Positions 4,998 through 5,465 of a stretch of DNA of 9,608 nucleotides are shown piece by piece; the stretch's first letter is position 1, and the number at the start of each line of letters is the position of its first letter. This DNA is from a virus (Duplodnaviria; Heunggongvirae; Uroviricota; Caudoviricetes). A model generated the notes under the pieces. It searched no databases. It was not told where the DNA came from and worked only from the letters and a program-made list of their open reading frames with translations. The position numbers and the translations under genes were made by a program. Location of the stretch: IMG/VR virus record IMGVR_UViG_2645727905_000011. One strand, given 5' to 3'.

Positions 4998-5465
4998 ATG
5001 TCTCACTTGGACGGAATTATTAAAAGATTCGAGTCCAGCTACAAAGTTAATGAAACAACAGGTTGCTGGGAGTCTACCTATTCAAAAAACAAAGGAGGAT
5101 ACACAAAATTTGTAGCCTTTGGAGTAACAATGCTTTCTCATCGGGTTGCTTTTGAGCTTTATCACTCCCCCATTCCATCTGGGAAGATGGTTTGCCACAA
5201 ATGCGATAACCCATGCTGCGTTAATCCTGAACATCTCTTTTTAGGTAGCGCGCAAGAAAACATGGACGACAAGATAGCAAAAGGAAGGCATCGTGGAGCC
5301 AAGAAAGGTCATGCTCATCATGGTGCAAAATTAACAGAGTGGCAGGTTATAGAAATTAGGAAAAGACTCTCTGAAAAAGAGAGTCAGTACAAGATAGCAA
5401 AAGACATGGGTGTATCTCAATCAATTATAAGCAACATAAAAACTGGCAAGAGGTGGAGCAAATGA
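4998..5465 (+). CDS. HNH homing-type endonuclease with C-terminal HTH
   Basis: 155 aa; GCWES...GYTKF...[13 protein letters not shown]...[19 protein letters not shown] matches the phage HNH nuclease family; C-terminal helix-turn-helix-like tail; visibly AT-rich compared with flanks. Confidence 0.85.

Follow-up and report, generated by a model that had tools for sequence, protein, structure and literature searches.

The window (the whole 9,608-nucleotide stretch of DNA analyzed here) carries on its + strand, in order, kil, two small "recombinase" ORFs, an annealase gene, an HNH endonuclease gene, ssb, abc2, accessory genes, xis, and int. The kil gene, placed from the ORF listing and annotation, occupies positions 3883–4035. 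The annealase gene at 4290–4997, which is 98–100% identical to its counterparts in HK75 and Sf6, encodes a Rad52/Erf-type single-strand annealing protein (Pfam Rad52_Rad22, E = 1e-25; PHROGs phrog_1097, Erf-like, E = 2e-129) and is the upstream neighbor of the HNH gene. The phage ssb at 5462–5968 (168 amino acids; Pfam SSB, E = 1.7e-36) is followed at 5982–6275 by the anti-RecBCD gene abc2 (Pfam Anti-RecBCD_p2, E = 4.6e-63), which forms the downstream end of the recombination module. Between the annealase gene and ssb lies the gene of interest, a free-standing HNH endonuclease gene at 4998–5465 that was identified from its ORF, Pfam, and PHROGs and encodes a 155-amino acid protein annotated in RefSeq as "HNH endonuclease" (WP_000018646.1). 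The PHROGs assignments agree with those of Pfam for the HNH gene and its neighbors.

The sequence of the window is found at 100% identity within a defective lambdoid prophage that adjoins mdtA in Escherichia coli Z1323HEC0423 (NZ_CP148334), with genes for the type III effectors NleG and EspJ nearby; window position 1 is position 7402 of our locus L006. The prophage lacks cIII, N, pL, cI, cro, and cII, and its O gene has lost the 5' part. What remains at 3538–3882 (− strand), the C-terminal fragment of an O-like replication gene, abuts kil at 3882/3883, and several genes near the element are marked as partial in RefSeq. Because pL and the immunity region have been lost, the HNH copy of the window, which is intact, may be silent and not expressed. 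Two RusA-family resolvase genes lie on opposite strands, at 806–1168 (−) and 3083–3439 (+), and between them the + strand at 1616–3086 carries genes for a PerC-family regulator, a phage N6-adenine methyltransferase, and a small LexA-like repressor; the presence of this block where a − strand nin region is expected suggests an inversion or insertion. An LprI-family lysozyme-inhibitor-like gene with a signal-peptide-like N terminus (6988–7713) precedes the most AT-rich stretch of the window and is probably an accessory gene acquired by the prophage.

The HNH gene is packed tightly against both neighbors. Positions 4995–5000 read GCGGCATAA|ATGTCTCAC, with the annealase stop codon TAA (4995–4997) followed directly by the HNH ATG at 4998, and positions 5462–5465 read GAGCAAATGAGTTCT, where the HNH stop codon TGA overlaps the ssb start as ATGA. 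For ssb the ORF listing gives a GTG start at 5453; the ATG at 5462 was adopted, as in homologous ssb genes. A Shine-Dalgarno-like element, GAGGTGGAG, was read directly at 5450–5458 (+ strand) inside the last HNH codons (GKRW) and is the putative ribosome-binding site for ssb; comparison of HNH 3' ends shows AGGTGG or a like GG-rich element at the same place in homologues. The GC content of the HNH gene is 0.406 (GC3 0.385); the annealase gene has 0.484, ssb 0.485, and the window as a whole 0.491. Just 5% of 468-bp windows are as AT-rich, and the GC content is lower still at 7500–8000 (0.36–0.40), so that "markedly" AT-rich is a fair description but not an extreme one. The earlier note had reported the abutting stop and start codons, the overlap with the ssb ATG, and the AT-richness relative to the neighbors, and all three are confirmed by direct reading of the junctions and by the GC profile. 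The same difference in composition recurs in other loci, with HNH GC of about 0.48 against flanks of 0.50–0.61 in a clade of homologues with 74% protein identity, 0.386 against 0.411 and 0.456 for the homologue in a Vibrio phage, and 0.443 against 0.486 and 0.474 in locus L007.

With its own start and stop codons between two complete genes, the HNH ORF is free-standing. No Rfam family, intron or other RNA, reached threshold within the window, and an intron-borne reading of the gene was rejected on this ground. A repeat search of 4800–5700 found no flanking direct or inverted repeats, and a transposon or insertion sequence was also rejected, as there are neither terminal repeats nor a target-site duplication in that interval. 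A promoter and terminator scan of 3400–6400 returned sites no more numerous than in shuffled sequence and does not support a promoter belonging to the element itself. The HNH gene contains a perfect 8-bp inverted repeat at 5365–5385 (GACTCTCT-gaaaa-AGAGAGTC), terminator-like on the − strand, and an exact 15-nucleotide direct repeat, ACAAGATAGCAAAAG, at 5269–5283 and 5389–5403, 120 nucleotides apart; both are probably due to chance.

The encoded HNH protein

The catalytic domain of the protein is an HNH_3 (His-Me finger) domain at residues 48–89 (5139–5264, + strand), defined by Pfam (E = 1.1e-13; 51 bits against a cutoff of 24.8) and by alignment. A weak match to zf-His_Me_endon was also found, and several PHROG families of HNH endonucleases match strongly. 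The combination of HNH_3 and zf-His_Me_endon is that of the I-HmuI homing-endonuclease group, His-Me finger group 2 (PMC5714182). In an alignment of 65 homologues, His-67, Cys-69, Asp-70, Cys-74, Asn-76, Pro-77, His-79, and Asn-88 are invariant, and the protein contains a ββα-metal HNH motif with the predicted catalytic histidine and the predicted Asn/His metal ligands. The C-terminal part, residues ~111–146 (5328–5435, + strand), matches the helix-turn-helix family HTH_38 below threshold (E = 0.0016; 18.5 bits, under the Pfam cutoff of 27). The AlphaFold2 model of the protein (pLDDT 90.7) has three helices at residues 114–149, and Foldseek returned helix-turn-helix matches for this C-terminal domain, the presumed sequence-recognition module. 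The best folds in the PDB by Foldseek were I-HmuI (1u3e, the top match) and I-PpoI, both homing endonucleases, with a probability of 0.99. The match to 1u3e covers 170 aligned columns but has an E value of 2e-3 and a TM score of 0.39, modest values that are partly expected because I-HmuI was solved in an extended, DNA-bound form. A sequence search of the PDB with the HNH protein gave no significant match.

The 24 copies of the E. coli-type gene are all intact, with no internal stop codon, and nine of their 11 variable sites fall at third-codon positions. Within the 74% clade dN/dS is 0.02–0.16; between the window gene and that clade dS is saturated, and dN/dS is not computable for that pair. 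The pattern of substitution indicates that the gene is maintained by purifying selection.

Empty sites and the rewritten start of ssb

In HK75, mEp235, Sf6, and Huey the ssb ATG comes immediately after the annealase TAA, with no HNH gene between them, and the HNH ATG of the window stands where the ssb ATG lies in these alleles. When the phage genomes were searched by megablast, the flanks of the HNH gene were ~98% identical in HK75, mEp235, mEpX2, and Huey and also matched in Sf6, with the ORF missing from all of them. The gene was found at 99% identity or higher in 41 of 5426 complete E. coli genomes, always annotated beside ssb, and the annealase/ssb module in about 407 of the 5426. Most of the module matches listed have the annealase gene and ssb adjacent and the ORF absent, and ~90% of the E. 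coli prophages with the module are without the HNH gene. The carriers are mosaically different prophages rather than one clone. The locus is therefore polymorphic for the presence or absence of the gene at one precise site among near-identical genomes. The earlier note had predicted that the annealase gene and ssb would be directly adjacent in related prophages, as is seen in HK75, mEp235, Sf6, and Huey; uniform presence of the gene with matching composition, the pattern that it had named as speaking for an ancestral part of the module, is not seen, given 41 carriers against ~407 modules and the lower GC content. None of the phage isolates in INPHARED has the HNH protein above 62% identity. 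A protein scan of species-representative genomes, a set that does not include the carrier prophages, gave a single unrelated match in Isosphaeraceae. In NC_011601.1 and three other assemblies of E2348/69 the HNH query matches two places per genome, and the second match could be a second HNH copy in another resident prophage.

Comparison of the two kinds of allele shows that the difference between them extends beyond the HNH gene into ssb. Where the HNH gene is absent, ssb begins ATG GCA AGC AGA GGC GTA AAT AAG (MASRGVNK); in the window it begins ATG AGT TCT CGC GGG ATA AAT AAG (MSSRGINK). In codons 2–6 (5465–5479, + strand), AGTTCTCGCGGGATA replaces the GCAAGCAGAGGCGTA of HK75 ssb, giving MSSRGI for MASRGV, with 10 of the 15 bases changed and almost all of the changes preserving the amino acid. 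When the window ssb was compared with that of HK75 in 30-nucleotide bins, the first 30 nucleotides contained 10 mismatches and the next ~480 only one. The serine and arginine codons of the patch have moved to the other codon family (AGC to TCT and AGA to CGC), a switch that maximizes the nucleotide difference while the protein is kept. The same rewritten start is present in every carrier locus. Among 2.9 million viral contigs of IMG/VR searched with the probe ATGAGTTCTCGCGGRRTAAAYAARGT, the rewritten start (ATGAGTTCTCGCGG...) occurred 29 times, each time in a contig with the HNH gene (29/29), and none of 80 other prophage ssb genes sampled had it, most of them beginning ATGGC.... The patch at 5465–5479 thus appears to belong to the mobile cassette.

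A second ssb allele carries the same patch. In locus L020 the HNH protein is identical to that of the window, with three synonymous nucleotide differences in the gene, and the ssb is of the Sf6 type, which is ~30% divergent from the HK75 type along its whole length. Relative to Sf6, the L020 ssb has the same 10 mismatches in the first 30 nucleotides and ~5 in the next 420. The combination of the HNH cassette with an Sf6-type ssb is present in six complete E. coli genomes. The recurrence of the same 10 mismatches in both types of ssb places the right boundary of the cassette within a shared stretch of 12 nucleotides, AAATAAGGTGAT. The same cassette is found at the same nucleotide in divergent alleles, with the putative target altered in the carriers.

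The link to ssb and the proposed mechanism

All 30 IMG/VR loci with an HNH protein at least 73% identical to that of the window have the gene between the annealase gene and ssb. The 74% clade, which is of the Cronobacter/Citrobacter type, retains this position in modules that have diverged; there, conservation of the HNH protein (74%) exceeds that of the flanking SSB (51–62%) and annealase (37–63%). In more distant relatives the downstream gene is still ssb, and the upstream gene is of the ERF family (PF04404) in Vibrio phage 1.079.O (L005, 62% identity), a gene of unknown function in Shewanella algae (L160, 60%), RdgC-like in L162 (59–60%), and Sipho_Gp157 in L164 (51%). The HNH stop codon overlaps the ssb start in each of these four loci. 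Every relative located at 51% identity or higher is directly upstream of ssb, whatever gene precedes it; a relative with 44% identity is located elsewhere, not at ssb. Because the relatives share ssb and have varied upstream genes, the likely target is the conserved 5' codons of ssb and not the gap between the annealase gene and ssb, and the conserved partner of the HNH gene, as judged from these loci, is ssb rather than the annealase or the recombination module. The earlier note had the gene invading the recombination module; the insertion itself is upheld, but the module or its gap as the target is not, as the gene sits in the first ssb codons and tracks ssb. The sequence ...AAACAGGCGGCrTAA, found upstream of the HNH gene in the 74% clade, was also considered as a target and rejected as a requirement, since it encodes the conserved C terminus of the Erf domain (ELKQAA*) and is missing in relatives with other upstream genes.

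Two of the distant loci retain remnants of an older ssb start. In Vibrio phage 1.079.O the ERF gene is followed by an orphan ATG GCA TCA CGC GGA (MASRG) behind an AAGGA ribosome-binding site, which runs into unrelated sequence and a stop codon before the HNH gene and then the new ssb start. In L162 the orphan, ATG GCC TCT AAA GGA (MASKG), forms an in-frame fusion with the HNH protein. Neither orphan extends past codon 5, which indicates that the ancestral event was an insertion immediately behind codon 5 of ssb, in which the cassette supplied a replacement for ssb codons 1–5/6. The new ssb starts that follow the HNH relatives include MSKRGINR. The window has no orphan ssb start, the HNH ATG being at the position of the old ssb ATG.

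Taken together, the ORF is likely to be a free-standing, I-HmuI-like homing endonuclease gene of the HNH_3 type whose home is the 5' end of the phage ssb, which we propose as the homing target. The earlier note had read the gene as a free-standing homing endonuclease, and the empty sites, the rewritten patch, and the link to ssb support that reading; from the same features we infer endonuclease activity and homing. In the proposed mechanism the early-left (recombination) operon would express the HNH gene, whose start is coupled to the annealase stop codon (TAAATG) and whose stop codon is coupled to the ssb start (ATGA). The protein would recognize the conserved first codons of ssb (...TAA ATG GCA AGC AGA GGC GTA AAT AAG GTG...) and nick or cut the empty ssb start in a co-infecting phage or co-resident prophage, and recombinational repair from the carrier genome would then copy in a cassette consisting of the HNH gene, the ssb ribosome-binding site, and the nucleotide-divergent ssb codons 1–6 (MSSRGI). 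Such a cassette would keep ssb intact and translated and would destroy the recognition sequence, presumably making the carrier immune, and the rewriting of the codons would also avoid a direct repeat able to delete the element. The location of the sole divergent patch, right at the insertion point, suggests that the cut is made close by, as with intron-borne enzymes. Cleavage by the endonuclease, its position, the immunity of carriers, and biased inheritance are predictions drawn from the sequence comparisons. Of co-conversion with flanking markers, only a static trace is visible, in the form of a patch with sharp boundaries.

Some of the observations are also compatible with other explanations. 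Purifying selection and tight translational coupling would equally fit a gene useful to the phage, and the HNH protein could be a genuine, non-selfish nuclease of the recombination module, one of several interchangeable variants, that acts alongside the annealase and SSB and supplies Erf-mediated recombination, for instance, with breaks or processed ends. The coupled position of the gene inside the module and its maintenance by selection are what such a role would predict; the packing, however, is also explained by insertion at the ssb start. We regard this role as unlikely, as ~90% of modules that are otherwise 98–100% identical are without the gene, the gene tracks ssb and not any annealase type, the protein has the domain family and architecture of site-specific homing enzymes, and both the rewritten codons and the orphaned starts of ssb bear the marks of insertion into a target rather than of module design. 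Selfish and module roles are not mutually exclusive, and a secondary benefit to the phage is possible.

It is similarly improbable that the gene, once a homing endonuclease gene or some other import, is now carried passively and spread by ordinary lambdoid recombination, with no current site-specific activity. The mosaicism of lambdoid phages does allow a passenger gene to spread in this way, near-identical flanks make crossovers easy, and its appearance in the second ssb allele needs merely a crossover within the 12 nucleotides of AAATAAGGTGAT; the window copy, moreover, resides in a defective prophage, and no isolated phage in INPHARED carries the gene above the identity given earlier. Against this, the catalytic residues are invariant and dN/dS is low, and a right boundary that is nucleotide-identical in two ssb alleles, within 12 nucleotides, would be unlikely for unstimulated crossovers. 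Least probable by far is that the gene is ancestral to the annealase-ssb module and was deleted in most phages, which the 74% identical copy at the same position in diverged Cronobacter/Citrobacter-type modules might favor, because deletion would have to restore ATGGCAAGCAGAGGCGTA exactly, the orphaned ssb starts upstream of the HNH gene show insertion, the HNH protein of the 74% clade is more conserved than its flanking SSB and annealase, and the HNH GC content is below that of both flanks in every lineage examined.

Homing to the start of ssb, if it occurs as proposed, would give a concrete target of ~27 bp for an uncharacterized clade of HNH_3 endonucleases, with matched natural substrates in the empty sites of HK75 and mEp235 and the filled site of the window allele. 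It would also describe how a selfish gene can occupy the beginning of an essential-type gene without cost, by bringing along a copy of the codons that it displaces and a ribosome-binding site. An enzyme that specifically nicks or cuts a near-universal bacterial and phage sequence could be of some use as a tool. An incomplete search of the literature found no description of a homing site at the ssb start, which is absence of evidence only.

Endonuclease genes at the ends of ssb and comparison with known systems

Other endonuclease genes are found at the ends of ssb. In L007 (3399–3926, E. coli 20AR1039) and L122 (984–1508) the annealase-ssb junction holds a different HNH_3 protein of 175 amino acids, with the helix-turn-helix at the N terminus and the HNH domain at the C terminus and with no detectable pairwise similarity to the window protein. 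The first codons of this gene are the ATG GCA AGC AGA of ssb itself, and behind it, in two different ssb alleles, comes a further rewritten start of ssb, ATGGGACGTGGAGTTAATCGCGTA (MGRGVNRV). At the 3' end, an endonuclease gene of the Sf6 gp26/Huey/ES18 type sits between ssb and abc2 (L004, Huey, 2624–3170; L003, Sf6, 2680–3225). The Huey ssb is identical to that of HK75 except for 10 mismatches in the last 45 nucleotides, beside this second endonuclease gene. In the window, ssb continues for 15 codons beyond the canonical ...DFDDDIPF end (5921–5968, + strand, by comparison with other phages), and at the DNA level this tail matches the final ~45 nucleotides, stop codon included, of the Sf6 gp26/Huey/ES18-type gene; the 15 extra residues are also present in HK75, L033, L081, L104, and L105. 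The tail may be the scar of a deletion or the original target. In L169 (2639–3135, E. coli 23CRST032) and L007 (4380–4878), the interval of ~500 bp that separates ssb from a 3'-5' exonuclease gene is unannotated, and in L007 this stretch contains an Sf6 gp26-like endonuclease ORF, which indicates that some modules have endonuclease genes on both sides of ssb.

The stretches MASRGVNK and DFDDDIPF are the two most conserved of the phage ssb. We suggest tentatively, as a possibility short of a probable one, that these first and last codons are recurrent landing sites for at least three lineages of endonuclease genes, namely the HNH_3-HTH clade of the window, the HNH_3 proteins of opposite domain order in L007 and L122, and the Sf6 gp26/Huey/ES18 type at the 3' end. 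Both lineages at the 5' end carry a nucleotide-divergent replacement for the displaced ssb start. If this suggestion is right, the "HNH nuclease" class of lambdoid recombination modules would be largely selfish cargo, the 15-residue SSB tail would record an earlier insertion or loss event, and the host ssb start could be cut during lytic growth. The start of the chromosomal ssb of E. coli K-12 (L079, 2126–2152; ATGGCCAGCAGAGGCGTAAACAAGGTT) matches the proposed target, ATGGCAAGCAGAGGCGTAAATAAGGTG, at 24 of 27 bases, and the enzyme might also cut the host gene.

The element belongs to an ordinary, common class and is seen here in unusual detail. Its closest parallels by domain family are I-HmuI, I-HmuII, and I-BasI, with which it shares an N-terminal HNH_3-type ββα-metal domain, followed in the window protein by a putative C-terminal DNA-binding module of the helix-turn-helix type like theirs. 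The gene for I-HmuI lies within a group I intron in a DNA polymerase gene, and the enzyme nicks a single strand. Both the window gene and the I-HmuI group are phage-borne and target conserved genes of DNA metabolism, here putatively ssb. In contrast to I-HmuI, however, the window gene is free-standing with no intron, and the sequence identity between the two proteins is only ~16%.

The Seg and Mob endonucleases of T-even phages resemble the window element in being stand-alone ORFs that lie between essential genes and are sporadic among close relatives, although Mob proteins belong to a different HNH group from the window protein (PMC5714182). With the free-standing homing endonucleases of T-even phages, known for intronless homing and marker exclusion, nearby polymorphisms are co-inherited, as with the window element, and the T4 enzymes typically cleave hundreds to thousands of base pairs away from the genes that encode them (PMC2988022). 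The window element differs in that its only divergent patch is at the insertion point and in that it replaces the start of the target gene, a geometry closer to that of intron- or intein-borne enzymes than to that of the T4 free-standing enzymes.

According to the available part of a report on Skunavirus (936-type) phages, their free-standing I-HmuI-like HNH genes, which are comparable in kind to the window gene, cluster by insertion location, and some of the endonucleases, when expressed, exclude phages that do not have them (PMC12724721). The hosts (lactococcal), phages, and insertion sites in that part of the report are different, and it describes neither a target at the ssb start nor codon replacement.

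The nearest parallel by location is the HNH gene of ES18, which like that of Sf6 gp26 lies in the same operon and adjoins the same ssb. A 2025 survey lists HNH genes among the nucleases of lambdoid recombination modules and considers the ES18 gene a likely genuine module member from its tight packing, while noting the mobility of some HNH genes (PMC12315714). The ES18/Sf6 gp26-type gene lies 3' of ssb, with abc2 beyond it, and its product has no Pfam match and no detectable similarity to the window HNH protein. It does, like the window element, come with a rewritten patch, in this case at the 3' end of ssb. The findings on the window gene caution against taking HNH genes that are packed tightly into lambdoid recombination modules for components of those modules, as the survey does with ES18.
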